IMG/VR virus record: IMGVR_UViG_2841531823_000001
Coordinates: 1-64,000 of that record
Origin: a virus
Lineage: Duplodnaviria > Caudoviricetes
Reading direction: 5' to 3' (one strand)
DNA: 64,000 nucleotides
Part shown: positions 8,901-52,677 of the stretch, in pieces
Position numbering within the stretch: position 1 is the stretch's first letter
How the letters are laid out: each line of letters starts with the position of its first letter
The notes under the pieces: model-generated
What the model saw: only the letters and a program-made list of their open reading frames with translations
The model's database searches: none
What the model was told of the DNA's origin: nothing
Translations under genes and position numbers: made by a program

Positions 8901-11900
8901 GCTTGAACCGCGCGAGGTATCGGGCTTCGGACTCGGTAAGCGCATCGAACCCGTAGCCCGTGGCGCGAATGAAGTCGGGTTCAATGTCGCCATGCTTGTC
9001 ACGGAGGGCCTGAAGCGTTTCGGGGGACAGTGCCAGTTTGGCGCTATACTGCTTGCCGGTCAAGGCCACAGTGCTGACCACGCGCCCGCCACCGGCCTCG
9101 ATGTGCCCCGCCAGCGAGGCGAAGGTGCCGCCTTGGGTGAGCGTATCGTCCACGACAAGGTAGTCTTGGCCGGCCGACACAGGTCCATCGAACTCAGGAG
9201 CGGCAAAGATCCGGTCCAGCCCCGGGAGCGCGGTGCGCCGCGGGGCGTTGGCCTGAACGATCTCGGCCGCGATATTCAAGCCGAGGCGACTCGCCAGGAC
9301 CCCTGCCGCCGCCAGCGGGATCTTGTTGCGGCCGGCGGCTTCCTCAGAGACGACCGGCACAACGAGGGGCTGGTGGGGGCCGAGTGCTTCCCGCACCCGC
9401 TTTACCAGATCGTCTGTCACCAGGTCGCGCGCAACCCGCACCGCCGCTGCAACATCTCCGGCCTTGGCTGCGGCATAGTCGGGATGGGTGGTGGCGCTGG
9501 CCAGGTCTCCTGCGATGATCGCGGGCCCCAGGCGAAGGGGCGCGCGCATGTCCGCTTCTGCTTCGCGAGACTGCCAGCGTCCATCGGGGCCGCGCGGCTG
9601 CGGGCCGCGCCCGCCTATCTCACCCGCTGCGATCCGCTCCATGGTCAGAGCCGCGCTCTGGAAGCCACGCCCGCGCAGCGCGTTGGCCAGAGCCAGGAAC
9701 AGCGCCTTCACCTTCTGGAAGGCCGCGGCAAGCGCCCCCATGTCGCGCCGGCCCTGCGCCCACTCGCGGTAGAGTTCGGCCACCATCTCCTCGGACCGGC
9801 CCGCGGTGTTCAGATCGGGATAGGCTTCTTCGACGCGCGCCACGATGTCGGCGTCCTTCCGCGCCGCGCGCACCAGCCCCACCCATTCGTCCCGCGTGAA
9901 CAGGCCGTATTCCGCCCCTCCGGCGTTCCCCGGGTCGCGGAGCGCGTGCAGGATCTCGTGATCCAGCGTGCCGCGCCAGTCGCCAGCCCCCACGCGCAGG
10001 CCGATGAAGCCGTTGCGGTAGTGCCCGAAGACGCCGGTGGAGCGCAGCCCGCGCACCGCCGCGGCCGTCACCCGGCGGGAGATGCCGATCTTCCGAAGCT
10101 CGGCCGCGGCCTCGGCCTCGACGCGGTTCAGATCATCGTCCGTGATCTCGCGCGGGTCGACGGGCTCGGCGCCGAAGCGGGAGTCCAGCCCCTCGTCCGG
10201 CGGCAGCAGGTCGTCCACCACCTCCGTTTCCGGCATGTCCGCGAGACGCGAGGCATCGCTCGCGGAAGCAAGCTCGGCGATCACCTCCTTGAGCCGCGTC
10301 TGCTTCTGCTCGTACTCCTCGGCCTTCGCCCAGGGCTTTGCCAGTTCGGCCTCAAGCTCCGGCTTTTCGCGCTGCGCCTTCTCCTTGCCCGCCTCGATGT
10401 TGGCGATGCGGCGGCGAAGGACGGACGGGCGGAAGTGTTCGAGAAGACGGTCAAGCCCCGTCCAGATTGGACCGCGGAGCGCGCCGACCGTGCCCCACAC
10501 CTGCGAGAACTGCACAACCTGCTTCTCATGCACCATGTTCAGGTCGATGGCGGCGCGGACCCCGAGATCCCCGGGCGATGTAACGATGTCGATCTCCATC
10601 GGCAGGCCCTTGAACGCCACGCCATCGATGAAGGCGCTGTCGGCGCCGTTGGCGGTCTGCCGGCGCACCTCGGACTCCAACAGTTCATCCAGCTTGCGCA
10701 CCGCATCTCTGATGTCGATGATCCGCTCGCCGCCGATCTCCATCTCAAAGTCTTCGGTGCCGAACTTGCGCCGGATCTCCTTCTCCAAGGCATCCACGCT
10801 CGTGACCGGCAGGCCCTCAATGTCCAGCTTGAACCGGGCTTTCTCCTTGTCGCCGCGCTGCTCCGCGATCTGCTCGAGACCGAAGTCATAGGCCGCTTGC
10901 GCGCTGTCGAAGGTCTTGCCCTCGATCGTGATGCTGCGCTGCGCCTCGCGCTCCTGCACGCCCGCGAACGCCTCCTCGACCACCGGCAGGTAGCCGCGGA
11001 CAAGCGCGGCATCCGCATCCGCATTCTCGAGCGTGCGGTCGACCTGGCGCAGCTGGGCGCGCAGCCCGTTCACCCGGTTGTTGAAGGAACGGCTCTGCAC
11101 ATCGAGCTTGTTCAGGTCGCCCTGCAGCGTCACCCGCTCCACCATCGGCGGGTTGCCGGTCGCAAGCGCGGCCATCTCCGCCATGTTCGCGGACTCCTCG
11201 TCCTCGAACTCCATGTTGAAGGAGCCGTCGTACTTGCGGATGCCGTTGATCGCCTTCAGCTTGGTCGCGTTCAGCGCCCACATCTTCGCGTCCACGGTCA
11301 TTTCCGTGGCGTAGGCCAGAACCTCGACCTCGAAACCGTCGTGCCCGTATTTCTCGAGGAGCTTGTTGCCCTGCCGCACGATGCGGCCCTCGCGCTGCTC
11401 GATGTCCGAGGGCTTCCACGTCACGTCGACATGGTGCAGCGCCACAAGCCGATCCTGAATGTTGGTCCCAGCGCCCATGCGCGGCGTCGATCCCAGGATC
11501 ACCCGCACGCTCCCGTCACGGACCTGCTTGAACAGGGCTTTCTTGGCCTTGTCGTCCTCGGCCTCCTGAACGAACCGGATCTCGGACTCGGGGATTCCGC
11601 GCTTCGCCAGAAGGCGCTTGATCTCGTCGTAAGCGTTCCAGCCACCCATGACGGCGTTGCGGCGGGCTTCCACGTCCTGCACGTCGAACTTGTCGAGTTC
11701 CTCGACGGCCTTCGCTTCACCGGCTTCGTCGCCCTCTGCCCGCGCCTTCTCGAGCTTCGCCACCCACTCGTCGTATTTGGCGACGAACGCCTCATCGCCC
11801 TTGGCCTTCGGCACGGACCGATCGAGGAAGATCACCTGAGTCCCGCGGTCTTCGGCCTTGTCGCGCCAGATCCGCGCGACGTTATCCACCACGGCCCCGA

Positions 11901-14900
11901 TCTTGCCGCTACCCTCCTCGACGCTGATGCTGGGATCGACGGCGCGGGCGTCCAGCGAGACCTTGCGCGCCCGGTCCATCAGCTTCAGCCGCTCGATGTT
12001 CCGCTCCTTCGGGTTGCGGATGCCGGGCAGGCTGTCGAAGCCGGACACGATGTCCTTCAGGATCGCCCGCTGGGCGGCGTCCGGTTTCACCGCGACCATC
12101 TCCCGATCGCCCTTGCCGGCCTTCTGGGACTTCACCGGCGGCACCGGGAACGGCGCCCCGTCGTTGTCCTCGGCAAAGGCCTTCTTGATGTCATCGAGAG
12201 GAACCGCGTCCGCCACCGAGTAGTAGAGGTCCATCAGGGACCGCATGTTCATCCACTCGCGCCCGAGGCGCGTCACCTCCTTCACGCTGCCGCTTTCGGT
12301 CGGCTCGTAGGCGGAGGCATAGGAGACGAACATCGCGCGCCAGGCGTCGAAGTTGTCGATTCCCATCTCGATCAACTCGTTCGGCGCGAGGTTGCGCAGG
12401 ACCAGATACATCTCGGCGACGGAGTTGCTGATCGGCGTGCCGGTCAGGAAGGCAATCGAGGTGCCTTGCCGGTCGTGCAGGGACCGGGATTTCAGGTGCA
12501 AGTCGATGGCCTTGGCCGAGCCGGTCTTGTTGCCCATCCCCGAGACGCCTTGCAGGCGAGAGGAATAGGACAGGTTCTTGAACTCGTGCGCCTCGTCCAC
12601 CGTCAGGTCGTCAATGCCCATCTCCTCGAAGGAGATCAGCTTGTCGCGGTTCCGCGCCCGGATCTTCGCAAGCCGTTCCTCGAGCTTCGTCACCAGGCGC
12701 TCGGCCTCGGCCACACCGAACGGCTTGCGCTTGCCGAAGGTGACAAAGCCGGCTTCTTCGGCGGCTTCCTCGGCCTCCGCGACCGCATCGCGCGCCGCCT
12801 TCAGTTCAGCCTCGACGTAACGCTCCTCGGTCGACGGATCGAGGTTGATGAAGCCGAAGGAGGAATGGCCGATGATGACGGCATCGTAGTCACCGGCCGC
12901 GATGCGGGCAAACAGGCGGCGCCGGTTCTTCGCCTCGAAGTCGGTCTTGCTGGCCGCCAGCACATTGGCGCCCGGGTAGAGTTGCAGGAAGTCGGACTTC
13001 CATTGCTCGATCAGGTGGTTCGGAACCACGATCAGCGGCTTCCGGGAAAGCCCCATGCGCCGCCGCTCCATCACGCGCGCGATGGCGGTGAAGGTCTTGC
13101 CGGCGCCGACGACGTGATCGTAGAGCACCGTGCGGTCGGTGATCCCGCGCCAGATCGCGTTGAGCTGGTGGCGCCGCATCTTGATCGCGGGATTCTTGCC
13201 CGGAAGCTGAAGGTGGCTGCCGTCCCGCTGCCGGATCAGGCGCGTGTTGAACTTCTCGTTGAAGATGTCGACCAGCTGCTCGCGCCGATCATCGGACTGG
13301 AAAGCCCAATCGAGGAACTCGTTGAAGATTTCCGTGCCCTTGATCTGGCTTTCGGCCGTGGCCTCCTCATCGACGTGGGTTTTCCCCTCGGAATCCCTGT
13401 ACGTCACCTTGAGCGGCGCGCTGTTCAGAAGGCGCTCGACAATCTCGGCCGGGCTCAATGCCCGGTCCGATGTCGCCCATTGTGAAGCAGGATTGCCGTC
13501 CGTCTGCACACCGAACAGGTTGCTGACCGGCTGGAATACCACCGCAGAGCGGCTGTAGCCCAGGTGCTTCAGGAAGTCGGAATAGACCTGCGGCGGGATC
13601 CACGTCGATCCGAGGTTCGGCGTGATGTCGCCCGCCTCCCATCGCGGCGGCTGCACGGCTTCCAGCGCCTTGATGTTGGCTTCGAGCCCGGCGGCGATGG
13701 CCGCGTTCAGCTTCCGGCGCACGAGGCCCGACAGGTAGAGGTCGGCCGGCTCCCAGCGCCCGGTTTCCGGGTCGAAGAACGCCCGCGGGTTCTCGCCCGC
13801 ACTCAACGCCTTCTCCGCCCCGGCCTGATCCGTGCCGAGCAGCTGGGCGATGCGCTCGAGGTCAATCTCCCCGCGCTCGGACAGCGAGACGGCGACGGCC
13901 TCAGACGCATCCTTGGCCGCGGTGATCGGGGCGTGGGGCATTGTCACGCGGCGAGACATGATGGCCGCCTTCTGCGGCTTGCCATCGACAATCTCCTCGG
14001 CGCCGAGCGCAAGAGCGCCGTCCGGCATCGTCAGTAGCATCCGGGCGGTGCTGGCCTTGGTGAGCGGGCCGTGAGCCTTCACGAACGTATCGTAGGCGGC
14101 GTTCAGTTTCTCCCGGTTCCGCTCGATCTGCTTCTCGGTGCCATCCTGCACTTCCAGCACGAACTGGCGCTTCATCAGGTCGCGGATCGGCAGCGCATCC
14201 CGCAGCATGGCGATGCGGTTCTTGCCCCAGCGGCTCGCCGCCGGAACATCGGCTTGATCGACCGTGCGGATGATCTTCTGGTTGCGCGTCGAAAGGGTGC
14301 CGTCAGCCTTGCGGACCTTGACCGGCTTGCCCTTCTCGTCCAGCACATCCTCCTGGATCTGCCACTTCCCGTCCCCGGCATAGGTGTAGTCCGGGCTGAA
14401 CGGGGTGTCGGCGGTCAACTCGATCTCGGTCAGGAGCGGGCGGCCGTCGCCCGTGTCCATCTCGACCACTGTCTTCAGCGTGTCGTTCTCGTCGACGCGC
14501 ACGCCGCCCGGCTCCGCGCCGGCAACCGCGAGGCGCATCGCCTCGGCCATGCGGGAGAAGCTGGCTGATGTACGCTCGGCCACCGCATCACGCGGGGCGC
14601 GCTCGCGGATGCCCGCGATGGCCTCTTTCAGTTTTGCCCCGAACTCTGCCGGGTTCTCCATCGTCACGTTCAGGTCGGCGCGGCCGTTCATCGTGCCGCT
14701 CGCGTCGATCTTCCCGATGACGGCGCGCGGGTTGCGCATGAAGTAGTCGTTGACGCTGATCTCCGCCCCGCTGCCGGCCGGGTCCGTGACCTTGCCGGAC
14801 AAGACCCAGCGCGCGAGGCTGTCGCGCAGGCTGGTGGCCTTCGACACGAGGGCAGGGTCGAGCTTGTCGTTTGCGAGAATGGCTGCGCCGTCGATCCCCA

Positions 14901-17900
14901 GGGACCGGGCGGCGAGATCCGCGGCCTCGGCCTGATCTTCAGTCCAGCGCCGGAAGAACAGGATGTCCGTGACCACCTCAGTCCGCGCGTTCTCCATGAA
15001 GGCGTTGCTCGGAAGCCGGATGGCGGCCTCGAGGTTGGCGAGCCGCGCCATGTCCACCCGGTTCTTCGGGTCCAGCGCATCCATGAGGTTGTGCGTGACC
15101 ACCATCGCCAGCAGGCCGTCAGGCGCCAGCGCCTTGAGCGAGGCGAGGAAGAACTGATTGTGGATCGTGCGGCCGTTCACGTCCGGCTGGTAGCGGAAGA
15201 ACAGGCGGTCGCGGCCGAAGGGCGGGTTGCCGATCGCAAGGGCAAAGCGGCCATCGGGCAGCGGCACCTTCTCGAAGCCGGAGTGCAGCACCTCATGCCC
15301 CGGGTAGAGCAGCTTGGCGATCCGCGCCGTGATGGAGTCGTACTCCACGGCGAGCACCTGGCTCTTGCCGCGCAGGGACTCGGGCATCAGGCCAAGGAAG
15401 TTGCCGGCGCCAACGGACGGCTCGAGGACCGCGCCGCCGGTGAAGCCGAGACGCTGCACGCCCTGCCAGACCGCATCGACCACCGTCCGGCTGGTGTAGT
15501 GGGCGGCTTTGGTGGAGTTGCGCGCGACCTTGATCTCGGACGGGTCCAGAAGCTCCTCGAGTTCGGAGACGCGCTTCTCCCATCCCTTGGCGATGCCCTC
15601 ACCATCGCCCGATCCGGCGACGCGGAAGGCGTTTTTCAGGCCGCCCCAGCCGACGTAGCGGGCGAGGATCGCCTGCTCGTCCGGCGTGGCCCGCCGGTTC
15701 TCGCCCTCGATCTGCTTTAGAAGGCGGATCGCCGCCACGTTGTCGGCATACTTCTGCCCCTCGGTGCCTTCGCCCAGGCGCAGCGCATCCGTGATGGTGA
15801 AGTTGACGGCCGGGATGTTGACCTTGCCGGCCTTGGCCTTCTCGGTTTCCGCGCCCTGCTCACCAACCTTGTCGGAATCGGCCGCGGTGTCCGAGACGCG
15901 GGCACGCTTGCGCCCGCCCTTCGGCTTCTTCTCCCCTACGGGTTTTCGGGTGGCAGCAGAATTTCCTCGGGGAGCACGAGTTCTTCCGCCTCGTGCTTCT
16001 GCATCCCCTTCTGCATCAGCGCGGCCACCTGCTCCGCTGCCCTCCGGCTCGCTCCCTGCGCCTCCGCGTTCAGCGACCCGTCCTTCTCCATCGCCCGGTA
16101 CATCGTCGGGAGATGCTCCTTCCAGTGCTTCAGCGCCATCCCGGCGTACTGCGTCCCCAGCATCTTCGGCCTCGCTTGTGGGTGCCTCATCCATGGTAGC
16201 ATCGGACTCGGTCTTTTTCGAGGCCGCCGCGCGCATCTTACGCACTTCGCGGATCACCTCCTCCGCGCTGTCCATGTCAGCCACGTCCTCGCCCGCCAGT
16301 TCCATGTCGTCGCGGATCTGGTTGTAGGCGTTGCGGGCGTAGGGCTGCGCCTGCTCGAGCGTGAGCCCCATCCTGTCGATCATGGTGTCGATCAGGGCGC
16401 GGAACCGCCGCGTGCCGCTCTTGACGTAGAGCGAGCCGATCTTGAACGCGACGGCGACCATCTGCGGGTCCAGGCCGCTGTTCACCTGGTTCTTGAGCAT
16501 CGCGAGGAACTCGGCCTCGAGCGCCGCGAGTTCGGCGTTCTCGGCCTCGGTCAGCCCTTTCAGCCCTTTCGGCTTGGAGGCGGCAGGCTGCGCAGCAGCT
16601 TTCGGCTTCTTCGGCGCCGGCTTCGGCTTCTCAGGGTCGGCCGCCACCGGCGCCGGGTTCTGTGCAGCCTCGCGCTTCTTCACCGGCTCGGTGGGCTTGG
16701 TCAGGTCGCCGGAGGCGAGCCAGTTCTTGAAGCCCTCAACGCTGGTCGCAGTGAAGCTGCCGATCCGCTGCCGGCCCTTGCCGTCCGAGAAACCGGCCTC
16801 GTAGATCCCCAGCGCGGCCGAGGTGGAGCCGGTTCCGAGGATGACCTTGTGCTCATCCCATTTCCCGGTTTCGGCATCCACCTGATTGACGATCAACACG
16901 AAATCGGAATCCGGCATGTCGCCCATATAGAAGTCGACATGATCGCCGTCCGCGCCCTCGGTGCGCAGAATCCGGCCGTAGTGCGCCGGCATCTTGACCG
17001 ACCATGCCGTTTTCCCGTCCGGCGTGGTCTTGCTACGGATCGAGCCCTTGGCGTTCTCGATCGAGAGCGTGAGGCCATTCCACGGCGCCTTGCCGGTCCG
17101 GTAGTTCTCGGCTTCCTTCTGGGCCTCGGTCGGGTTCGGATCCGTCTCGGCCGCGGCGGCGTCGATCTCCTCGCGGGTCGGGACGGCAGGCTTGCCGCCG
17201 CGCACCACGCCCACGCGGGCGAATGCCGCCTCCGCCTCAGCGATCCCTCCGTTCCCGAGGAAGGTTGCCCCGTGGAACGGGTTGTATTCGTCCCTGAACA
17301 CCGGGGCGATTTTGTCCAGATCGGCATCAGACAGCGAGCCGAGCCAGTCGGCATATTCGGCAACATCGGGGAAGATCCCCGTCCGCATGTCCTCGAGGCT
17401 GTTGTCGGGCTGGCCCATCACCCTCTTGAACAGGGCGAGCCCCCTGTTCTCGCGCCAGCTTTCCGCGGGGGCCTTAACGGACGTCTCGGCATAGCCAGCC
17501 AGCCACTCGGCCCCAAGATCCTCGCCGAACCAAGCAGGGGGCTTCCGAGGCTCGCCATCGCGGGCGGCCGCAGCGCCGGCTTCGCGAGCCTTGCGCTTCT
17601 TCTCCTCATGGCGGGCATCGGCGACCGGCACGGTTTCCGGCGCCGGGCTTTCCCCCGCCGCCGGCTGTTCTTGCTTCGGCTGGGCTACTTCCTCCCGCCC
17701 CTGCCGCCCTTCTTGCATCCCTTGGCCACTGGCCGTCTCCTTCTGCTGAGGTTGAGGTTGAGGTTGGGGGGTGTCGACCCTGGGCTCGACAGGGGGGGCG
17801 GCCTTGGCCTCGGCCAGTCCCATCGCCTGCTCCACGGCCGGCCGATGCTTGCGCGAGAAGATGAACCCGCGCTCGCGCTCATCCCATTTCAGCGACACGC

Positions 17901-20900
17901 CGGGCACGGCCGGGGGCGCATCCTTCGGCACGCCGCGCAGGACCGCGGCCTTGGAGCGGATGTCGGTGATCGAGGGGGCGGGGGCCTCAGCGGTCAAGGA
18001 TTCCTTGACAGGCGCCGGCGCTGCCTCCGCTTGGGAGAGGGAGGCGCGCTTCTCGGTCATGAATCTGTTGTACGCGCCCATGTAGACGCTATCAGCCGCG
18101 CGCGCGACCACGCGGCCGCCACGCTTCTCGATATATCGCCTTTCCGCCTCTTTGGCGTAGGCGTGGGCCTCCGGGTCTACTTCACCGGCAGGCATCGCGT
18201 CGCCCTCCGCTTGGGAGGGCGCCGGGAGGGTAGAGGGAGGAGCGGCGGGAGGAAGGGCCAGAGCCGGCTTCGGAGCCTCGATGGTCCCGGCATTGCGGAT
18301 CGTGCCTGCACGGTAGAGCCGGCCGTAGGCGTCGGTCAGCGCGCGGCGGCCGTTTTCGGACATGCCACCCCAAGTCATCGCCTTGCGGTGCTCGCGCTCG
18401 GCCGCTGGTCCGGCTTCGCGCAGGATCGCCTTGCGGGTGTCGGCATCGGCTGCATCCCACCACGGCGCGGTCCGCGGCACCGGGGGCGGCTGAAGGTCGA
18501 CCCCCACGGATGCGGCGGCATCCTTGCGGGCGCGGGCGTCTTCTTCGGGCGTGATGATCTCGCCCGTCAATGCCGGCGCAGGCTTGGTGCCTGCAGCTGC
18601 ACCATCCATATTGCCCGCAGGAGCATCGTCAGGCGCGATCCCGGCGGAAGCGGGTGAGGCTTCTTCAGGAACCGCTTGATCTTGCGCGCGTCCTTCTTCG
18701 ACAGTGCCCCGATCCTGCGCAGGAACTTCACCGACTCGTGCGCCGTCAGGCAGAACGGCAGCGCCGTCAGCCTCGGGTCCGACAGGTCCAGTTGCAGGTG
18801 CAGTTGCTGTTTCACCGGCGGCCTCCTCCTGAATCGTGCCCGCCTGATCGGCGGTCGGCACGGCCACGAAACCGCCGTCCTTCGGCTCGATCCGGTAGGC
18901 CGCCGGGTCGCGGCCCTGGTTCTCGACGGCGCGGCGGGCCTGCGCCTCGCTCTTGAAAGGGGTGCCGTCCTTCTTCGCGATGACGGCGGGCCGGATCTTC
19001 GACGCCTCCTGTGCCGCCGCATTGTCGGCCAGCATGTCGGCGTCGGCGACGGCCTTCAGTTGATCGTGGATGCCGCGCAGGCGGGCGTCCCAGCCGCGGG
19101 CGCGGGCTTGGTCCTCGATGATCGCGATCCGCTTCCGCGCCTCATCCGGCGTGAGGTCGGAGAAGTCCCCGGTGGCGCGGGCCGGCGGCTCGGCTAGGGC
19201 CGGCGCGGGCGGCATGGGCCCGGGCCCCTGCGGCTTTGGCTCCGGCGCAGCGGCGGCCGGCGGGTCTTCCGGCTTCGCCTTGCCGGTCTTGATGACCGGC
19301 TGCTCGCCCTCGCGGATCGTCGCCGGGCGCTCGAGCTCGGGACCGGGTTCGGTGGTTGGGGCCAAGCTGATGGAGACCTGCCCCGCGTCGAACTCCGAGC
19401 GCGGGATCTCGAGCACCTCGCCGTCGCTGGTCGTTACGGCGACGGCCATAGGCGATTGCGCAGTCAGGGTGCCGCCGATCGGGTTGCCATCCGGGGTCCA
19501 GACGCGAACGGCCGCGCCCGGCTGCACGCCGGGCAGGATCTCGCCGGGCGACAGGTTGGCCGCGGCGCGCATGGCCGGAGTGGGCGCGGGCGCTGGCGCG
19601 GCAGGCGCCGAGGGATTGGCCGGGGCGGGGGCCTGAGCGGCCATGCCGGCGTTGAGCGCGGTGCGGAGCGTGCCACCGGGCCGGAACTGCGCGGGCTGTT
19701 GCGTCGGGTCGCCCGCGCGATAGTCGCCGGGCTGGCGCTCGAATGCCGCGGGATCGCGGGTCGGGCCCGCGCCGAAGATGGTGCCGCCCGCCTCGGGCGC
19801 CGGGAGCGCGAGGGTCTGTTGCTCCGCCTCGGGGCGCGGAGGCTCCTCGACGTTCACCTCCGGCTCGTGCCGGCCCATCGCGCCAGCCACGCCGCCCACT
19901 GTGCCACCGACGATACCGGCGGCGACGCCGACCTCGAGATATTCGCGGCGGGCGTCCTCATCCCAGAGCGGCAGACCAGCTTGCGCCCGCTCGATCACGG
20001 ATTGACCGATCTCCGTCGGAACCTCGACCATCCCGCCCATTGCGGCGCCGCCGGCGGCCCGGCCGAGGATCTTCATCCCGGCCTTCTCGGCCACCTCACG
20101 CGGCACAGCGCGGGTGAAGATGCCGGTCAGGCCCTTCGCGGCAGGCTTGAGCGCGAGACCGCCAATCAGCATGTCACCGAAGGTATCAAGCGCCGCCTGC
20201 GGGGCGGAGGCAACGATAGCCTTGAGCTCGTCCACTCCCTCGGACGGATGCGCCTCCTTCTGGCGCTCCCGGTTCATGCCGTAGAAGAAGGGCAGGTTGG
20301 CGAGCGTGCCGCCGATCATGCCGCCCACGGCGCCGGCCGCGGTCCCGAGCCCAGGCAGTACCGCAGTGCCGATGGCCGCGCCGGTGGCTGCGGCGCCGAG
20401 CGAAACGCCCAGCTGCGGCACCTGTTGGGCCAGAGTCTCCCCAACGAACTTTGCCCCCGAGCCGACACCATCGACATCCTCGAGGCGCGTCATCCCTGCG
20501 CTTGCGTCCTCGATCTCCTGCCGGTTCCGGTCGGCCACTCCCGCGCCATATTCCGCCAGCCCATCGAGCCCGGTTGACCGGCCCACGCCCTCGATGGCCG
20601 AGCCAGTCGCCTGCTGAAGCTGGTCGATGCCCACGCCCACGGCGGCCCCGAGGCCGCCCTCCTTGGGCGGCTGCGCAGCCTTCAGCTTCGCCATCTGCTT
20701 CGGATACAGGGCCTCGCCGATCTCGCGCGCCCGGGTCATGAAGGCGTCAGCCTTGTCGCCCGCCGTCTCGCGGATCAGGGACTTGATGTCCTCTCCGGCC
20801 TGAATGCGCGGGCCGAGCTCGGCCGCGGCCTGCTCTGCGATGGCAAGCGCCTCGTCGGCCGTCTTCGCGCCGCCGGTCTCGGCCAGCGCAATGAGCACGT

Positions 20901-21009
20901 TCGCGGGAACCTTCGTCTTGCGCGCAATGCCTTCGACGCTCTGCCGCGCCGTCGATCCGCCCCCCTGCTTCGCGTCGTTCTGGGTCTCGAACATGAAGAG
21001 CGGGTTCAT
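5983..21009 (-). CDS. giant DarB-like polyvalent virion protein (5008 aa): InPase-like, N6-adenine MTase, SNF2 helicase, zincin peptidase, PRTase, PLxRFG and C-terminal LPD-type domains
   Basis: HYGRILRTEGADGDHVD..DEHKVILG; LEPSVGAG and GNPPF; VGAGKT, DEAH, QREGRIVRQGN; HEILH; VVDDTLTQGGT; YFPLGRFG. Confidence 0.92.
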   Translation of the reverse strand: MNPLFMFETQNDAKQGGGSTARQSVEGIARKTKVPANVLIALAETGGAKTADEALAIAEQAAAELGPRIQAGEDIKSLIRETAGDKADAFMTRAREIGEALYPKQMAKLKAAQPPKEGGLGAAVGVGIDQLQQATGSAIEGVGRSTGLDGLAEYGAGVADRNRQEIEDASAGMTRLEDVDGVGSGAKFVGETLAQQVPQLGVSLGAAATGAAIGTAVLPGLGTAAGAVGGMIGGTLANLPFFYGMNRERQKEAHPSEGVDELKAIVASAPQAALDTFGDMLIGGLALKPAAKGLTGIFTRAVPREVAEKAGMKILGRAAGGAAMGGMVEVPTEIGQSVIERAQAGLPLWDEDARREYLEVGVAAGIVGGTVGGVAGAMGRHEPEVNVEEPPRPEAEQQTLALPAPEAGGTIFGAGPTRDPAAFERQPGDYRAGDPTQQPAQFRPGGTLRTALNAGMAAQAPAPANPSAPAAPAPAPTPAMRAAANLSPGEILPGVQPGAAVRVWTPDGNPIGGTLTAQSPMAVAVTTSDGEVLEIPRSEFDAGQVSISLAPTTEPGPELERPATIREGEQPVIKTGKAKPEDPPAAAAPEPKPQGPGPMPPAPALAEPPARATGDFSDLTPDEARKRIAIIEDQARARGWDARLRGIHDQLKAVADADMLADNAAAQEASKIRPAVIAKKDGTPFKSEAQARRAVENQGRDPAAYRIEPKDGGFVAVPTADQAGTIQEEAAGETATAPATGPVGPEADGAAVLPDGARVGEVPAQDRGTVEEGRAQDQAVPEEASPASAGIAPDDAPAGNMDGAAAGTKPAPALTGEIITPEEDARARKDAAASVGVDLQPPPVPRTAPWWDAADADTRKAILREAGPAAEREHRKAMTWGGMSENGRRALTDAYGRLYRAGTIRNAGTIEAPKPALALPPAAPPSTLPAPSQAEGDAMPAGEVDPEAHAYAKEAERRYIEKRGGRVVARAADSVYMGAYNRFMTEKRASLSQAEAAPAPVKESLTAEAPAPSITDIRSKAAVLRGVPKDAPPAVPGVSLKWDERERGFIFSRKHRPAVEQAMGLAEAKAAPPVEPRVDTPQPQPQPQQKETASGQGMQEGRQGREEVAQPKQEQPAAGESPAPETVPVADARHEEKKRKAREAGAAAARDGEPRKPPAWFGEDLGAEWLAGYAETSVKAPAESWRENRGLALFKRVMGQPDNSLEDMRTGIFPDVAEYADWLGSLSDADLDKIAPVFRDEYNPFHGATFLGNGGIAEAEAAFARVGVVRGGKPAVPTREEIDAAAAETDPNPTEAQKEAENYRTGKAPWNGLTLSIENAKGSIRSKTTPDGKTAWSVKMPAHYGRILRTEGADGDHVDFYMGDMPDSDFVLIVNQVDAETGKWDEHKVILGTGSTSAALGIYEAGFSDGKGRQRIGSFTATSVEGFKNWLASGDLTKPTEPVKKREAAQNPAPVAADPEKPKPAPKKPKAAAQPAASKPKGLKGLTEAENAELAALEAEFLAMLKNQVNSGLDPQMVAVAFKIGSLYVKSGTRRFRALIDTMIDRMGLTLEQAQPYARNAYNQIRDDMELAGEDVADMDSAEEVIREVRKMRAAASKKTESDATMDEAPTSEAEDAGDAVRRDGAEALEGASPDDVPGDGEGRVAERGGAGSEPEGSGAGGRADAEGDAEARGGRTRAPRGNSAATRKPVGEKKPKGGRKRARVSDTAADSDKVGEQGAETEKAKAGKVNIPAVNFTITDALRLGEGTEGQKYADNVAAIRLLKQIEGENRRATPDEQAILARYVGWGGLKNAFRVAGSGDGEGIAKGWEKRVSELEELLDPSEIKVARNSTKAAHYTSRTVVDAVWQGVQRLGFTGGAVLEPSVGAGNFLGLMPESLRGKSQVLAVEYDSITARIAKLLYPGHEVLHSGFEKVPLPDGRFALAIGNPPFGRDRLFFRYQPDVNGRTIHNQFFLASLKALAPDGLLAMVVTHNLMDALDPKNRVDMARLANLEAAIRLPSNAFMENARTEVVTDILFFRRWTEDQAEAADLAARSLGIDGAAILANDKLDPALVSKATSLRDSLARWVLSGKVTDPAGSGAEISVNDYFMRNPRAVIGKIDASGTMNGRADLNVTMENPAEFGAKLKEAIAGIRERAPRDAVAERTSASFSRMAEAMRLAVAGAEPGGVRVDENDTLKTVVEMDTGDGRPLLTEIELTADTPFSPDYTYAGDGKWQIQEDVLDEKGKPVKVRKADGTLSTRNQKIIRTVDQADVPAASRWGKNRIAMLRDALPIRDLMKRQFVLEVQDGTEKQIERNREKLNAAYDTFVKAHGPLTKASTARMLLTMPDGALALGAEEIVDGKPQKAAIMSRRVTMPHAPITAAKDASEAVAVSLSERGEIDLERIAQLLGTDQAGAEKALSAGENPRAFFDPETGRWEPADLYLSGLVRRKLNAAIAAGLEANIKALEAVQPPRWEAGDITPNLGSTWIPPQVYSDFLKHLGYSRSAVVFQPVSNLFGVQTDGNPASQWATSDRALSPAEIVERLLNSAPLKVTYRDSEGKTHVDEEATAESQIKGTEIFNEFLDWAFQSDDRREQLVDIFNEKFNTRLIRQRDGSHLQLPGKNPAIKMRRHQLNAIWRGITDRTVLYDHVVGAGKTFTAIARVMERRRMGLSRKPLIVVPNHLIEQWKSDFLQLYPGANVLAASKTDFEAKNRRRLFARIAAGDYDAVIIGHSSFGFINLDPSTEERYVEAELKAARDAVAEAEEAAEEAGFVTFGKRKPFGVAEAERLVTKLEERLAKIRARNRDKLISFEEMGIDDLTVDEAHEFKNLSYSSRLQGVSGMGNKTGSAKAIDLHLKSRSLHDRQGTSIAFLTGTPISNSVAEMYLVLRNLAPNELIEMGIDNFDAWRAMFVSYASAYEPTESGSVKEVTRLGREWMNMRSLMDLYYSVADAVPLDDIKKAFAEDNDGAPFPVPPVKSQKAGKGDREMVAVKPDAAQRAILKDIVSGFDSLPGIRNPKERNIERLKLMDRARKVSLDARAVDPSISVEEGSGKIGAVVDNVARIWRDKAEDRGTQVIFLDRSVPKAKGDEAFVAKYDEWVAKLEKARAEGDEAGEAKAVEELDKFDVQDVEARRNAVMGGWNAYDEIKRLLAKRGIPESEIRFVQEAEDDKAKKALFKQVRDGSVRVILGSTPRMGAGTNIQDRLVALHHVDVTWKPSDIEQREGRIVRQGNKLLEKYGHDGFEVEVLAYATEMTVDAKMWALNATKLKAINGIRKYDGSFNMEFEDEESANMAEMAALATGNPPMVERVTLQGDLNKLDVQSRSFNNRVNGLRAQLRQVDRTLENADADAALVRGYLPVVEEAFAGVQEREAQRSITIEGKTFDSAQAAYDFGLEQIAEQRGDKEKARFKLDIEGLPVTSVDALEKEIRRKFGTEDFEMEIGGERIIDIRDAVRKLDELLESEVRRQTANGADSAFIDGVAFKGLPMEIDIVTSPGDLGVRAAIDLNMVHEKQVVQFSQVWGTVGALRGPIWTGLDRLLEHFRPSVLRRRIANIEAGKEKAQREKPELEAELAKPWAKAEEYEQKQTRLKEVIAELASASDASRLADMPETEVVDDLLPPDEGLDSRFGAEPVDPREITDDDLNRVEAEAAAELRKIGISRRVTAAAVRGLRSTGVFGHYRNGFIGLRVGAGDWRGTLDHEILHALRDPGNAGGAEYGLFTRDEWVGLVRAARKDADIVARVEEAYPDLNTAGRSEEMVAELYREWAQGRRDMGALAAAFQKVKALFLALANALRGRGFQSAALTMERIAAGEIGGRGPQPRGPDGRWQSREAEADMRAPLRLGPAIIAGDLASATTHPDYAAAKAGDVAAAVRVARDLVTDDLVKRVREALGPHQPLVVPVVSEEAAGRNKIPLAAAGVLASRLGLNIAAEIVQANAPRRTALPGLDRIFAAPEFDGPVSAGQDYLVVDDTLTQGGTFASLAGHIEAGGGRVVSTVALTGKQYSAKLALSPETLQALRDKHGDIEPDFIRATGYGFDALTESEARYLARFKPTEAVRDRILAEGRRGGAGADQGNAQGLTGHEFRADLIRPRGAAAERGLISQILTDAMGGKGRANLLALVPGEPLLAELGKRLPSIRAYLNLKHDMGAERNERQARADEVAQRWRKAMRGKEGQKQNQAMMDLMHESTIARLDPSKPFVKPRRGPNEGASAYAARIVAGQEAHADLKAKFDALPEPLQSIYREVRDFYREMADAEERAVLENVRVAMSVNLQRAQRAYDDEMQRIRDDGLEGAEYDEAVDAAKRRLATVKRSAGWGASARISALRSVFESNRIEGPYFPLGRFGNYFVTVRDADGKVVSFSKFESEREQQAFAAEQKKTGARVQMGVMTDAAGKMKEMIDPTFVADIEKLVGDAGKDDALMDAIWQRYLETMPDLSIRKSRLHRKGTEGFTRDAFRVFGVKAFHGAHQIARLRFGMKMTNELEKAEVDADKTDDPNRAKLVVNEILRRHEFTMNPKSSAWSAWASSAAFVYYLGATPAAAMVNLSQTTIVGVPVMLARFKGANVTGVTRELLRGLRDFASGKGHAADSKRLTHDEKRALAEAYRRGVIDKSQSHDLAGIAEAGAEYSDLRARLMKPIAFMFHHTERMNREITFLAAYRLGRAEGQSHEAAVETAGRVTWDTHFNYESDARPRLLQQDWLRVAFTFRNFQINMLYRLFRDMHQMVRGRTAEERKEARTQLIGITASMMLHAGITGTWGYALITALLGLFDDDGADGVEEEIKQGLIGLFGPEIAGLFLKGVPGHLTGIDLTSRLGMPELWFRAPDRQMEGDDLYAYWVEQVIGPVPAIGASIFTGIGVAADGNVYRGVETAVPKFVRDAMKGFRYMTEGVTTRKGDTILEDVSPAQAITQALGFSPAKVSERYEINNRRMNAQKRIEDDRREILNEITKALRAGERPSREAFDQVAEFNRAHPQFAITGDTIRRSLRSRIKAGQDIAEGGGIRLNDKLEREIMARFGATSLYG
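8817..8945 (-). CDS. nested +1-frame small ORF overlapping the end of the PRTase domain (start uncertain)
   Basis: C-terminal LKPSEIESLRKDAAAALAQIKAMLKA amphipathic helix uses GC3-rich codons; no clear RBS. Confidence 0.45.
   Translation of the reverse strand: MRLPSPKPDTSRGSSRLKPSEIESLRKDAAAALAQIKAMLKA
15936..16163 (-). CDS. nested +1-frame gene, TnpV-like small helical protein (75 aa)
   Basis: GAGG-6nt-ATG; strong GC3 bias; YAGMALKHWKEHLPTMY..EAEELVLPEEILLPPE resembles the TnpV pattern. Confidence 0.75.
   Translation of the reverse strand: MLGTQYAGMALKHWKEHLPTMYRAMEKDGSLNAEAQGASRRAAEQVAALMQKGMQKHEAEELVLPEEILLPPENP
16193..16221 (-). promoter_or_regulatory. putative internal sigma70 promoter for the nested TnpV-like gene
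   Basis: TCGAAA-17nt-TACCAT with extended -10 TG. Confidence 0.45.
17685..17729 (-). CDS. nested +1-frame micro-ORF MAKGCKKGGRGGRK (14 aa)
   Basis: AAGGAG-7nt-GTG preceded by unstructured (CAACCT)n. Confidence 0.45.
   Translation of the reverse strand: MAKGCKKGGRGGRK
18567..18815 (-). CDS. nested +1-frame gene, basic 82-aa protein
   Basis: AGGAGGAGG-6nt-GTG; codons CTG/AAG/TTC/GAC/ATC typical of host while main frame turns A/T-ending and low-complexity. Confidence 0.75.
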   Translation of the reverse strand: MKQQLHLQLDLSDPRLTALPFCLTAHESVKFLRRIGALSKKDARKIKRFLKKPHPLPPGSRLTMLLRAIWMVQLQAPSLRRH

Positions 21010-21095
21010 CGTGGCGCCTCATCTGGTGCAGGGGTGCCGGGACGATACCACACATCCGCCAACGGGGAACATATCGGATCACATGGCGGATAAAC

Positions 21096-21688
21096 TGCGC
21101 CGCGCGCTTGGCGGGCCTGACGCGACACGTCGCGGGACGGAGAGGTGCCACGTCAGCACCCGCCAGAAGGCGGTTGTGGAGTGCCGCAGTTTCCGCACCG
21201 CCCCACGCGATGCCTCGTGACCGATCAGCGGCGTTCGTTCCCGTTGACACGGGGCAGATCAAGCGCGGGCCGTGGACCGTCCATCCTGTGGCAGCGTCCT
21301 GCTTGCAGCCCACCTTCCGAGGGGCGTCCGCGCTCGGAAGAAGCTGCCCGTTCCTCGACACAAGAACAGGACAGGTCGATCAGTCCTGTCCATGGCGGCC
21401 GCTCATCTTGGCCCGGAATCGAACCGGGAGGCAGCTTCATCTCAGTGCGGTGAGGGGCTTTCCACCCCCCTTGGCTACCGGGCAACTCGTGCAAGAACTG
21501 CACAGGTTGCTGCTCGAGGTCGGGGCGCGGTAGCTTCCCCTAGCATTCTGCCCGCGCCACCCCGGCCTATCAGGGCTTCCGGTTTCCCGGATGGCGACCC
21601 CTTTTCCGGCGAGCCGGCGGGGGCGGGATTGCCGCGCTGGTTCCGTCTGTCGGGTTCCCCCGCATCATCCGGGCGCGTTCGGCGCACT
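21096..21688 (-). ncRNA. candidate large structured ncRNA (~590 nt)
   Basis: 5'/3' closing helix (21673-21686 with 21096-21107), more than 10 internal stems, T-loop-like GGTTCGATTCC, GAAA tetraloop, upstream promoter, no credible ORF. Confidence 0.7.
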
Positions 21689-21693
21689 TGGGT

Positions 21694-21722
21694 CACATAG
21701 CGGGACACACGGCCCCTGTCAA
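21694..21722 (-). promoter_or_regulatory. sigma70-type promoter of candidate ncRNA
   Basis: TTGACA-17nt-TATGTG; predicted TSS ~21687 coincides with start of the closing helix. Confidence 0.6.
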
Positions 21723-23782
21723 TCAAAGCTCGCGACCGGGACATCCCCCAGGAGCGTCTCGATGTCGGCCCCAGGATTGGCCTGCAGCGCCTGCGCCGCC
21801 GAGATGATCTGCGCGGGGCTGTAGGTCTCGATCACCGCGTCAGGGTCGATCACATCGCCGCGCGACTTCGCCTCCGCCTCGATTGCCGCCTTCAGGATCT
21901 CGGTCGCCGCCTTCAGATCCTTGAGCGAGTCCGAGGTGGAGCTCTTTTTCGGATCGCTGATGGCCGCCCAACCAGCCTCGAAGGCCGCCACCGGATCCAG
22001 CGCGGAATAGGCCATCATCATCAGATCCTCGCCAGAATATTCCTGCGTCACGGTCTCGCCGGTGCGGTCGTTGCGCATGGTGAGCTTGGCCCGCCGGATC
22101 TTCCCACCGTCGCCCTCGATGATCTCGAGGCCGCCTTTCGGGATCGAGAACCCGTCATCGTAGTAATCGGCGTTGTTGAAGACCTCTGTGAGGTGCCTCT
22201 CGGCAGCGTCAGTGTCGCGGAGCATCATGGCATGGGTGGCGGCCATGTAGGACTTGATGCCCTTCTGCACGCCCTGCTGCTGCGACCACTCCTGGAAGGC
22301 CTGCGCCTCCTTCACGCGCCCGGTGCGGAGGAACCGCTCCACGATCGCAGGCATCTCCTCCTCGTTGAACATGCGGAGGCCATCGGTCGCGGCGCGGTCG
22401 CGGCGGGCGGCCGTCGTCTTGACCGGCATATCCTCCCCGATCACGCCCATGCCGAAGGTCGTCCGCGCGGACTTCTCGGCAGCAGCGGCGCCGGTGCCAG
22501 CCGGGGCGGCCGCGGCGGGCTGCGCACCGAAGGACAGTTGCGCTGGCTGCGGCGCGGGCTGCGGCGCGGGCCCGGCCGCCTGCGGCTGTCCAGCCGGGGC
22601 CGCTGCAGGCGCGCGCGGGGCGGCCCGGTTCGCCTCCCCGGCCCGCATGAGTGCCGCGCCCGCCTCGGGGGCCTGCGCCGCCGCCGCGACCACGCCGGCC
22701 GCCTGCTGCGCGCGCCCGGTGACGTCGCCGCCCATCGCCGCGAAGTCCCGCATCGCGCCCGGATAGATCCCGATAGCGCGGCCGATGCGTCCCGGGACCG
22801 AGCCCACGGCATCGGCGATGCTTTGCGCCCGGCGGCCCGCCGCATCCGCCGGAGCGGCCGGCGGCGCCTGCCGGCGCGCGTACTCCTCGGCGATCTGCGC
22901 CTTTGCCTGCTCCTCGGCCTGCGCGAAGGCAGCGGCCTTCTCACGGGCGTCGCCCTTGTCATTCTGATAGCGCCATTCCCCGCCGATGGCGGACACGGGG
23001 AGCCCGGCCGCCTCACGTTGGCTGCGGTTCATGGCGGCCCATTGCTCATAGGTCGGTTCGCTCGCCGTGGCCGGCACCGGCTGGCCCGCCGAGGTTTGCG
23101 GGATGCCGGCTGCACCAGCCAGCCGCGGATCCACGCGCCCGGCGCCGTAGCCCGAGATTTCGGGCCCGATCTCGCGCGCAAGATCGCGGATGGAAAGCTG
23201 CCGCTGCCCGGTGTTCGGGTCCACGAGAGCCACAGGGGCAGGGGCCGCGGGGTCCGGCCCGCGCGTGGGCGCCTCGCTCATCACCTGCGGCGGCTGTCCG
23301 GCTGCGGCCGGCGGGCGCGCGTTCATGGTGGAGAGGCCCAGCCGCCCGACACCCTGGGGCGCCGCGGGCTGGGCTGGCCGCGTCACCCCCGGCTGCGCGG
23401 CCTCCACCTCCTCACGGGACGGGATTCCGAAGCTGAGACGCCCGCCACCCGCCACATCCGGCATGTCCATGGGATCGCGGCGAGGTGCGGTTTCCGTGCC
23501 ATCGGGTCCGATCCCCTTCATCTGATCGACAGTCGCATTCCACGCGGCCTCATCGGCCTCGCGGAACTGCTTCAGCCGCTCGCGCTCGGATTTGGTGAAC
23601 GCGCGCTCATCACGCTGCGCGGCCTGATCCTCGCGCGCCCAATCCATCTGCTCGCGCCGCCACTTGAACTCCTCGTCCTGCATGGCGCGCTCGCGCTTGC
23701 GGTTCTTGAACTCGTCCATCCATTCGGCGCCCTGAAAGCCGCCCTGAATGAGCCCCGATACGAAAGACGCCGCTCCGGCCAT
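21719..23782 (-). CDS. putative internal virion/DNA ejection protein
   Basis: 687 aa, Ala/Pro-rich, SFVSGLIQG N-terminus; position between tail genes and giant protein. Confidence 0.65.
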   Translation of the reverse strand: MAGAASFVSGLIQGGFQGAEWMDEFKNRKRERAMQDEEFKWRREQMDWAREDQAAQRDERAFTKSERERLKQFREADEAAWNATVDQMKGIGPDGTETAPRRDPMDMPDVAGGGRLSFGIPSREEVEAAQPGVTRPAQPAAPQGVGRLGLSTMNARPPAAAGQPPQVMSEAPTRGPDPAAPAPVALVDPNTGQRQLSIRDLAREIGPEISGYGAGRVDPRLAGAAGIPQTSAGQPVPATASEPTYEQWAAMNRSQREAAGLPVSAIGGEWRYQNDKGDAREKAAAFAQAEEQAKAQIAEEYARRQAPPAAPADAAGRRAQSIADAVGSVPGRIGRAIGIYPGAMRDFAAMGGDVTGRAQQAAGVVAAAAQAPEAGAALMRAGEANRAAPRAPAAAPAGQPQAAGPAPQPAPQPAQLSFGAQPAAAAPAGTGAAAAEKSARTTFGMGVIGEDMPVKTTAARRDRAATDGLRMFNEEEMPAIVERFLRTGRVKEAQAFQEWSQQQGVQKGIKSYMAATHAMMLRDTDAAERHLTEVFNNADYYDDGFSIPKGGLEIIEGDGGKIRRAKLTMRNDRTGETVTQEYSGEDLMMMAYSALDPVAAFEAGWAAISDPKKSSTSDSLKDLKAATEILKAAIEAEAKSRGDVIDPDAVIETYSPAQIISAAQALQANPGADIETLLGDVPVASFD

Positions 23783-44865: not shown

Positions 44866-45622
44866 GCGGCTGGACTCCTCTGGCTGGTGGGGTCTTGGAA
44901 GGATCGAGCGGCGGAGCGGCGATGGCCGCGGCAAGGCGCTCGATGCCGGGGCGGAAGTAGCGGAGGGTGCTGGGCGGGCCGTCGCGCTTGCCCGCCATCA
45001 TTTCCGTGACGACGGACAGGATCTCGGCCTCGCCGATGCCGGGCATGGCGGCCCAGCGGGCGACCTCCTCCATGTCGGCGCGGGTGCCGATCTGGCGACC
45101 ACCGGGGCCGATGAGTCCCGAGACGGGATCAGCACCGCAGGCGGCGAGGATGCGCTCGCGGAGCGTCGTTTCGGCCCCGCGCGTACTACCACCACCACCT
45201 ATATCTACTGTGGGTATGGGTGTGGGTGTGGGTGTGGGGGCATCCGCTGGGCATTCGTTTGGCAATGCCGCGGCATCAGTCTTTTTTGTTTTCTTCCAAC
45301 GGGTTGCCGCTTTGTCGGCTTGCGATGCGCTTTTTTTGGACACAAATGCGCGTTCCTTAACGAGCCTCTTTTGCGTCCAAGTTTTCCGTCTTCCGTCGCG
45401 GCGCCAGAACTGCATGACCACCGGACGGACCTCCTGCCAGCGGTCGAGAGGCAGTCCGGCGAGGCGGGCGAGCAGGCGGTCATCATCTGGCAGGCTGCAT
45501 TCCGGCCGGCGCCACGCCTCCATCATCAGGAGCAGGTACGCCCCATGCTCCTCAGTGTTTAGGTGCCGCGTGTCCGCGAGGTAGGCATCGGTGAAGAGCG
45601 GCAGGGCAGGAAACTCGGCCAT
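44750..45622 (-). CDS. replication initiator, YdaU/DUF1376-like
   Basis: LPLFTDAYLADTRHLNTEEHGAYLLLMMEAW..LPDDD..LARLA. Confidence 0.85.
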   Translation of the reverse strand: MAEFPALPLFTDAYLADTRHLNTEEHGAYLLLMMEAWRRPECSLPDDDRLLARLAGLPLDRWQEVRPVVMQFWRRDGRRKTWTQKRLVKERAFVSKKSASQADKAATRWKKTKKTDAAALPNECPADAPTPTPTPIPTVDIGGGGSTRGAETTLRERILAACGADPVSGLIGPGGRQIGTRADMEEVARWAAMPGIGEAEILSVVTEMMAGKRDGPPSTLRYFRPGIERLAAAIAAPPLDPSKTPPARGVQPHGRNREPGFAAKHREYVRRVAAGEIDPGPDPSDPDSWR

Positions 45623-45674
45623 CAGACCCTCCTCGGGTCACAATCCGGGGCACATGCGCGGGCTTGCGAAAGGG

Positions 45675-51550: not shown

Positions 51551-51653
51551 CGGTCAAGTGCCCAAGTTGGAGATTGCCGGTTCGTGCGCGGTTTCGGATA
51601 ACCCGCTTGAACGGGGGAATCTTTTGGCCGCGCCAGGAACGCTACATTTCGAG

Positions 51654-52001
51654 ATGATGCCGGAGAGGATCGGACGACGGCTCCGGTTCCTTCGGAAGGC
51701 ACATGGATTACGTTCGGCGGAGATCGCAGACCTGGTGGGCATTCCGCGCACCTACTGGTCACGGTTCGAACTCGGACGCCGCGCGCTCACCAACGACGTG
51801 GCGGCGTCCCTGTGTGATCGATTTGGGGTTTCGCTGGACTATCTGATACTTGGTCGGATGAGCGGGATGCCCTTTGAGATGGTCGAGAAGCTCCGCGAGG
51901 TTGAGTCGGCGGAGGCTGCCGGAGCATCTTCCGACGCCGACGATGGCGATGCGCCCAAGCCGCGTCGTCGCGCTTCGAAGAACAAGACGTCGAGCGACTG
52001 A
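51654..52001 (+). CDS. XRE-family HTH prophage repressor (start uncertain)
   Basis: IGRRLRFLRKAHGL..WSRFELGRR..FGVSLDYLILGR. Confidence 0.85.
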   Translation: MMPERIGRRLRFLRKAHGLRSAEIADLVGIPRTYWSRFELGRRALTNDVAASLCDRFGVSLDYLILGRMSGMPFEMVEKLREVESAEAAGASSDADDGDAPKPRRRASKNKTSSD

Positions 52002-52094
52002 CCAGTCTCCAGGGCCACGCTGGCCAGCGCGAGCAATTCGGGATTGTCGCGCCAGTACTCACCAGATTCGCTAGTCAAAATTTCCACTCCCTCT

Positions 52095-52122
52095 AAAGGC
52101 TTGCGGTTTCCGCAGGCCTTTT
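52095..52122 (+). terminator. bidirectional terminator after repressor
   Basis: AAAGGCTTGCGG/CCGCAGGCCTTTT stem-loop. Confidence 0.7.
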
Positions 52123-52178
52123 CGCCTTTTGCACCACCGCTGCAGACTGGCAAGTCCGGGCTGCGACGTATTGTGAGA

Positions 52179-52233
52179 ATGTCCATACGGGACATCTTCA
52201 GTCTTGACTATGACCGATTTGGACATTTACGGT
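52179..52233 (+). promoter_or_regulatory. rightward early promoter with two 17-bp operators
   Basis: ATGTCC-N5-GGACAT (52179-52195), ATGACC-N5-GGACAT (52210-52226); TTGACT-18nt-TACGGT. Confidence 0.7.
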
Positions 52234-52258
52234 GTGTCTCGCAGCATGGAGGCACACC

Positions 52259-52555: not shown

Positions 52556-52677
52556 TGCGAGAGGCCCTCGTCATTTCTCTCGCACTGGTGGTGATGGCTC
52601 TGTGCGGCCGCACCATGATCGAGGCGCCGGCCAAGGTCGCCGCCACCATCCTGCAGGCGCAGGACCAGCGCTGGTGA
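52555..52677 (+). CDS. small hypothetical protein
   Basis: TGATG coupling. Confidence 0.45.
   Translation: MREALVISLALVVMALCGRTMIEAPAKVAATILQAQDQRW

Follow-up and report, generated by a model that had tools for sequence, protein, structure and literature searches.

A long non-coding spacer with a promoter-like site ahead of the DarB-like giant gene of a prophage

The stretch of DNA investigated in this study, a window of 64 kb from the beginning of a provirus record of 96 kb, contains a long interval between a virion gene and a giant gene of 15 kb, which raises the question of whether this interval gives rise to an RNA of its own, controls the gene that follows or is an inert spacer between two modules. 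A sequence-only reading had interpreted it as the source of a discrete and ornate RNA of about 590 nt, similar in size to ROOL and GOLLD, and had considered a regulatory leader of the giant gene as an alternative. A new large structured RNA in the prophage of an alphaproteobacterium would be notable, as such RNAs are rare and their functions open.

The non-coding interval and its setting

The genes on either side of the interval define its context. The upstream gene (21719-23782, minus strand) encodes a virion structural protein of 687 aa, which is assigned as Bcep22 gp74-like by phrog_9667 and by tblastn. The latter finds gp74-type genes of Bcep22, PEp14, Itty13 and others in 25 phage records, all with less than 60% identity and about 20% of the protein covered. 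The downstream gene (5983-21009, minus strand) encodes a polyvalent giant virion protein of 5008 aa, which is DarB-like as judged by phrog_6958, Pfam and synteny. Its Pfam domains comprise InPase, SNF2/ResIII/Helicase_C and LPD39, and no methyltransferase domain was detected at E≤1e-4 upon searching both halves of the protein. The giant gene is syntenic with those encoding gp75 of Bcep22 and gp27 of PEp14, each annotated as 'DarB-like antirestriction', and a report on phage JC1 describes the detection of the homologous protein in virions by mass spectrometry (PMC9144972). The gene order that characterizes Bcep22-like phages, in which a giant polyvalent gene of the DarB type follows the gene of a gp74-like virion protein, is thus present here, and the six relatives carrying homologues of the upstream gene include four that are named Cereibacter sphaeroides. 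We assign the prophage to the Bcep22-like, temperate podophage type and to Cereibacter sphaeroides. One end of the prophage is marked by a tyrosine integrase of 450 aa (DUF6538 and Phage_integrase, 60361-61713) together with the adjoining tRNA-Ser(GCT) at 61827-61916. The identical 90-nt tRNA-Ser was found in 40 Rhodobacterales genome contigs, which points to a host-type gene and a likely attachment site, and a serine tRNA is also reported for Bcep22-like phages in the account of JC1 (PMC9144972). The host flank (62000-64000) showed matches of 31-72 nt only when compared with 401 Rhodobacteraceae genomes.

Both borders of the interval are correctly placed. Conservation of the 687-aa protein extends to the last residues of its C-terminus, which supports the end of its gene at the gap. 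For the giant protein, the alignment with five relatives begins at about residue 20, which supports its start at 21009. The gap of about 700 bp noted in the earlier reading is thus confirmed as an interval of 709 bp (21010-21718) with a GC content of about 0.66, which extends from the stop codon of the 687-aa gene to the ATG of the 5008-aa gene and which is real and non-coding. The latter is reflected in the spread of GC content between codon positions, which amounts to 0.04-0.24 in the gap compared to 0.3-0.6 in both flanking genes. None of the 13 stop-to-stop frames of the gap shows coding-like composition (GC3 does not exceed 0.78 and there is no dip in GC2), and searches of these frames against Pfam and PHROG at E≤0.1 returned a single 14-bit PHROG match with an E-value of 0.096. 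Two of the longer frames (150 and 104 aa) have no homologues among 5.8 billion proteins, and none of 10 open reading frames of the gap is found in the protein collection, although it contains the neighbouring 687-aa protein. By composition, protein families and homologues alike, the interval resembles neither a protein-coding gene nor a pseudogene. The stretch of 84 nt adjoining the giant gene (21010-21093, minus strand) contains a GAGG at 21020-21017, located 7 nt ahead of the ATG. In the same stretch, ATCCGCC and GGCGGAT form an inverted repeat of 7 bp (21054-21060 and 21085-21091).

Spacers often drop in GC content, and the value of 0.66 found in the gap equals the genome average, as would likewise be compatible with a structured RNA or with coding DNA that decayed recently. 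No further copies of the gap were found in its own record, in phage records or on plasmids, and a BLAST search of the 401 Rhodobacteraceae genomes returned only short matches of 38-45 bits. The repeats of the window that involve the gap are restricted to short two-copy families of 73-88% identity. We also considered CGGATCACAT as a repeated operator motif, which was rejected with 9 matches at one mismatch compared to 5.2 expected, and an origin of the gap from a giant gene that once extended further at its N-terminus and then decayed, which conflicts with the described alignment of the N-terminus to relatives. A direct repeat of 21 nt with 76% identity (21004-21024 and 21388-21408) places a copy of the ribosome-binding and start region of the giant gene inside the gap, ahead of an open reading frame of 44 aa (21259-21393, minus strand), which is probably due to chance. 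Elsewhere in the window, three stretches of 730-1260 bp each (44935-45663, 49679-50427 and 51558-52821) are without a coding-like GC3 frame by a crude filter and may be atypical genes or additional non-coding regions. The same crude map of coding potential contains non-coding-like stretches of 230-1260 bp at other places in the window, and since genuine genes escape its filter, we did not rely on it.

Folding and comparison with known RNAs

The proposed RNA would be closed by a stem between 21096-21107 and 21675-21687 and would enclose a series of internal helices. If folded as minus strand with ends imposed at 21090-21695, the drawn helices are mutually compatible, and for seven of eight the complementarity is matched by pair probabilities that average 0.56 or more. 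The highest values were obtained for the hairpin 21578/21591 (0.98) and the helix 21482/21510 (0.88), followed by the helices 21340/21438 (0.77), 21369/21391 (0.72) and 21314/21340 (0.61), the closing stem (0.61) and a hairpin resembling the T-arm of a tRNA (21412-21428, 0.56). The exception concerns the helix 21517/21568, which shows a probability of 0.00 on the minus strand compared to 0.51 on the plus strand with the same ends. The claimed internal stems are thus largely borne out as complementary sequence, with one of them failing on the strand for which it was drawn. The closing stem is absent from both the MFE and the centroid structure of the whole gap, and its underlying inverted repeat (12 of 15 positions) belongs to a set of 10 comparable pairs within 951 bp.

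To which extent this folding exceeds the background is apparent from a comparison with shuffled and coding sequences. The 592-nt candidate folds below its own dinucleotide shuffles, with z-scores of -2.70 on the minus strand (none of 150 shuffles as low) and -2.88 on the plus strand (1 of 150), which is the outcome that had been anticipated for a structured RNA. Yet both values are inside the range obtained for 17 length-matched coding segments of this phage, which extends from -3.08 to +1.22 with a mean of about -0.8 (30 shuffles per segment) and where three segments reach -2.5 or below. For the full 709 nt, the z-scores from 20 shuffles are -1.29 (minus) and -2.58 (plus), and in sliding windows of 120 nt the minimum in the gap (-2.74) compares to -3.06 in a window inside the upstream gene. 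The folding of the gap thus does not exceed that of ordinary coding sequence in this phage, and the near-equal scores of both strands point to plain Watson-Crick self-complementarity of GC-rich DNA rather than pairing that is specific to an RNA.

The comparison with known families is equally instructive. The 4227 covariance models of Rfam 15 include ROOL, GOLLD, HEARO, OLE, tmRNA, C4 and riboswitches. At gathering thresholds, their only match in the window is the tRNA-Ser, at 61830-61916, and a sensitive scan of 20900-21850 at E≤10 produced four matches that score 11-16 bits, whereas the eukaryotic or viral families concerned have gathering scores of 44-88. The search that had been recommended for the candidate therefore did not place it in any family, even at E≤10, and no match to a C4 or sar-type RNA was found in the gap. 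ROOL and GOLLD are prophage-associated RNAs of roughly 600-800 nt. These large ornate RNAs, which are the subject of bioRxiv 10.1101/2024.12.08.627333 and PMC5737381, share with the gap their size class and their prophage location in a non-coding interval. The gap differs from them by the lack of a match in Rfam 15 at E≤10 and by its alphaproteobacterial host and, whereas both families are defined by covariation in many genomes, it is not conserved across relatives.

A similar picture emerged for the resemblance to a tRNA. A tRNA-Phe(GAA)-like stretch at 21404-21497 (minus strand), to which the T-arm-like hairpin belongs, is called by ARAGORN at 85% of its thresholds, a setting that returns 52 calls in the 64-kb window and thus corresponds to noise level, and it is not called at default settings. 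RF00005 has no match at E≤10 in either 951 or 116 nt of the gap region, the 17-mer of the T-arm was not found in 5 Rhodobacteraceae genomes and an exact 26-nt pattern of the T-arm region had no match in viral contigs. What remains of the proposed T-arm is its pairing as a hairpin, whereas the searches assign no tRNA or tRNA-like element to the gap.

Exchange at the junction and resemblance to a plasmid element

The junction between the two genes was compared in distant and close relatives. In a sample of 401 Rhodobacteraceae genomes, five contain a distant homologue of the 687-aa gene, and four of these have the giant gene immediately after it, with open frames leaving 18-85 bp. For Bcep22 and PEp14 the junction comprises 76 and 9 bp, respectively, and the gene table of phage JC1 gives 84 bp (PMC9144972). 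The gap shares with Bcep22, PEp14 and JC1 the order of a gp74-like gene and a giant gene and a non-coding stretch with palindromes, which in Bcep22-like phages is short and spans 9-85 bp compared to the 709 bp found here. The tight junctions of up to about 100 bp in seven of eight more distant relatives imply that the long gap is lineage-specific, and the comparison of syntenic regions therefore did not provide the conservation that a widespread RNA would show. The 687-aa protein detected no related loci in viral, genome or metagenome contigs, and a degenerate pattern for its conserved C-terminal peptide had no match in metagenome or viral contigs.

The eighth relative, the Rhodobacteraceae genome G246, contains at the same junction an insert of about 2.3 kb whose opposite strand encodes a Rha/KilAC antirepressor, which illustrates that the junction takes inserts. 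This insert (contig 20, 2909-5330) also carries small open reading frames without family match. A precedent for such an arrangement is the immI region of P22, where ant and the sar RNA are found next to ejection genes. The gap resembles moron or immunity cassettes of late operons insofar as the antirepressor of G246 was inserted at the same point between the virion gene and the giant gene, but it contains neither a gene nor an antirepressor remnant, translated similarity to G246 or a match to C4 and sar families. Its interpretation as a decayed version of the G246 insert was rejected since neither DNA nor translated similarity was found, and there is likewise no translated similarity of the gap to the junctions of 7 relatives.

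The nearest relative is a public isolate assembly (run X1), which contains 56% of the sampled words of 20000-23000, and the close-relative comparison concerns this one assembly in its contig layout. Of eight DNA runs with sequence of this region, X1, X5, X6 and X7 were compared. Runs X1-X4 originate from the same sample, and X5, X6 and X7 are uninformative at the gap and were not treated as evidence, as the short contigs of X6 and X7 do not cover it and the match to a 19.6-kb contig of X5 ends before 21855. In a 58-kb contig of X1, the region 20000-21093 is found with 30 differences and the region 21446-23000 with 16, and both flanks are 97-99% identical to the window. Between them, 352 nt (21094-21445, minus strand) are replaced by 107 other letters, with a joint that connects 21093 to 21446. 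Located in the replaced segment are the closing stem's 3' arm (21096-21107), a long hairpin near 21111-21165, the multiloop with its helices 21314/21340, 21340/21438 and 21369/21391, and the T-arm-like hairpin, which are all taken out in X1. Judged from this exchange, more than half of the proposed RNA can be swapped or dispensed with among prophages whose remaining sequence is 97-99% identical, and the 107 letters of X1 could represent this segment in a diverged or shortened form. X1 still contains a gap of 464 bp and has thus kept a long spacer as such, which cannot be counted as conservation since the two prophages are too close. The same limit applies to the upstream 273 nt, whose retention with at most six differences is uninformative on constraint because the flanking genes are equally similar. 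The most divergent stretch of the comparison is the 84 nt adjoining the giant gene, with 7 listed differences. Across the region, divergence is distributed as a mosaic of 2.7% in 20000-21093 and about 1% overall in 21446-23000 with a cluster of nine changes at 22463-22544, which is typical of recombination between related prophages.

Together, the absence of the gap from seven of eight distant relatives and the replacement of 352 of its 709 nt in the nearest one are not what is expected for a conserved structured RNA. This weighs most heavily on the full ornate RNA of about 590 nt with its closing stem and tRNA-like arm, for which a structural, packaged or sponge function had been envisaged. 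The compatible and mostly well-paired helices on the minus strand agree with such a molecule, but with one arm of its closing stem, its multiloop and its T-arm-like hairpin exchanged in X1, a closing stem that is absent from the unconstrained fold and based on one of many similar inverted repeats, no family match and a tRNA-like call at noise level, we regard its existence as extremely improbable. A more restricted structured RNA of this lineage, which could be an sRNA, a stable RNA released by processing or a leader element acting in cis, would most plausibly derive from the retained region at about 21446-21690 on either strand, and as a leader element it might for example act in antitermination or translational control of the 15-kb gene. 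Its folding below shuffled sequences, several helices of high pair probability, a GC content as high as in coding DNA and the upstream region kept in X1 are consistent with such an RNA. Nevertheless, it appears distinctly unlikely in light of z-scores that are within the coding range and equal on both strands, the missing Rfam family and terminator, its absence from more distant relatives and a retention in X1 that is matched by that of the flanks.

A different relationship was suggested by the BLAST matches of the gap to Rhodobacteraceae, where a cluster at 21544-21587 led to a strongly conserved non-coding element of about 215 nt. This element immediately precedes an ssb gene of plasmid type, which encodes 134 aa, and is divergent from an H-NS gene. 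It is found on 83 plasmids of PLSDB from Rhodobacterales, Hyphomicrobiales and Sphingomonadales, of which 30 are conjugative, and one copy resides in an ssb-DUF932-radC neighbourhood. In the 46 distinct records listed, no annotation underlies the element except for a hypothetical protein under a partial match of 51 nt, and it does not match Rfam at the gathering threshold. The element is predicted to fold into a long closed hairpin, where 11 of 70 predicted pairs show compensatory changes in five copies. Single-strand promoters of the Frpo type are found in the leading regions of plasmids upstream of ssb. The element may be a leading-region single-strand promoter of this kind (compare PMC11541004).

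In a covariance model built from an alignment of 14 copies of the element (R1, 230 positions), the plus strand of the gap at 21510-21600 matches the three central hairpins with 18.8 bits and an E-value of about 0.002 in the window, a value that is biased since the family was discovered through this very stretch. The next best match in the window scores 5.9 bits. The gap shares the 18-nt core CTGCCCGCGCCACCCCGG without mismatch with 5 of the 14 copies in the alignment, and the ninth base of this core varies among the other nine. The gap could thus hold, in its 91-nt plus-strand stretch, a fragment of the alphaproteobacterial ssb-upstream element that was acquired by recombination with a plasmid or ICE, but we consider this origin very improbable. 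The likeness is confined to the middle of the element (model positions 64-152 of 230), whose own identity as Frpo is putative. The gap lacks the invariant outer stem and has no ssb gene nearby, and the element was found in no phage record. Moreover, four unrelated parts of the gap reach the same BLAST ceiling of 44.6 bits, and nhmmer aligns only the 55 nt at 21538-21592. The selected family, the BLAST ceiling, the short alignment and the missing outer stem are the reasons why the match was not counted as homology, and the resemblance is probably due to chance or a fragment.

A promoter-like site and a putative leader

A further feature of the interval is located at its upstream edge, where the minus strand contains TTGACA-17-TATGTG (21722-21694) with a predicted start near 21687, as had been described in the earlier reading. 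The -35 hexamer overlaps the TGA stop codon of the upstream gene and the site is oriented toward the giant gene. The relaxed pattern TTGACA-N16-18-TAT occurs once on both strands of the 64-kb window, exactly at this position (21722-21697), compared to 0.04 occurrences expected and with at least one occurrence in 4 of 100 shuffles, numbers that apply to a motif chosen after the sequence had been read. The site combines a perfect -35 hexamer and a spacer of 17 nt with a -10 hexamer that contains three of six consensus bases, and a strict promoter and terminator scanner, which made no calls in 20800-22000, rejects it at its -10 rule. The same scanner found no terminator-like sites in this range, which would leave the proposed RNA without a closed end and the giant gene not separated from the site. 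In X1, both hexamers are unchanged among the differences listed and the spacer differs at 21712 only. Palindromes ahead of the giant gene are also found in the short junctions of relatives, which fits a separate control point for this gene and is not evidence for one.

Of the roles proposed for the interval, that of a regulatory leader of the giant gene agrees best with these observations, as the unique promoter-like site is oriented at the giant gene and no terminator is located between them, whereas the poor -10 hexamer, its rejection by the scanner, the undiminished GC content of the gap and the folding of the candidate below its own shuffles count against it. We thus propose, at somewhat better than even probability, that the gap combines a promoter with an extended leader or spacer that is poorly constrained and lies at a junction open to inserts. 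It would be a lineage-specific and fast-changing non-coding spacer at a module junction, between a gp74-like gene and the DarB-like giant gene, with a promoter most likely of the sigma-70 type at its upstream edge, from which the remainder of the gap would be transcribed as a 5' leader of about 680 nt that continues without terminator into the 15-kb giant gene. The upstream part of this putative leader (21446-21693, minus strand) comprises the hairpins 21482-21510, 21517-21568 and 21578-21591, which are kept in X1. The detailed fold of the leader appears to be under no visible constraint, given that the middle 352 nt are exchangeable and that distant relatives are without the spacer. The additional DNA would probably be a leftover of insertion and recombination at a junction accepting foreign DNA. 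The firing of the motif, the read-through into the giant gene and the origin of the spacer by insertion are all three inferred.

The main competitor of a promoter with leader is an inert relic, such as a decayed moron cassette, where the hexamers would be coincidental and the giant gene would be transcribed by read-through of the late operon as in relatives. Such a relic, which we consider unlikely but still a serious contender, would account for the tight junctions in seven of eight more distant relatives, the antirepressor cassette of G246 at the same place, the replaced segment and the divergent 84 nt in X1 and the weak -10 hexamer. It does not explain why the only site of its kind in the window is found exactly here and in the right orientation, and the interval shows no trace of a former gene, neither by family matches nor by translated similarity to the junctions of relatives. 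We have also considered a modular leader RNA of Cereibacter prophages controlling the 15-kb gene, which would combine a constant upstream domain (about 21446-21690) with an exchangeable downstream cassette of 352 nt here and of 107 nt in the nearest relative, or, alternatively, plus-strand hairpins that are a phage-borne relative of the plasmid ssb-upstream element. Both are contained in a single idea to which we assign a low probability.

Collectively, the evidence favours an ordinary, fast-changing spacer with a likely promoter, and the window does not provide a new class of RNA. Our analysis has instead identified the junction before the DarB-like giant gene as an insertion hot spot in this group of phages, and it has revealed an unannotated and strongly conserved hairpin element, about 215 nt in length, which precedes the ssb genes of plasmids from three alphaproteobacterial orders. 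If the hairpins of the gap were a phage-borne relative of this element, they would link the strategies used by phages and plasmids during early entry.
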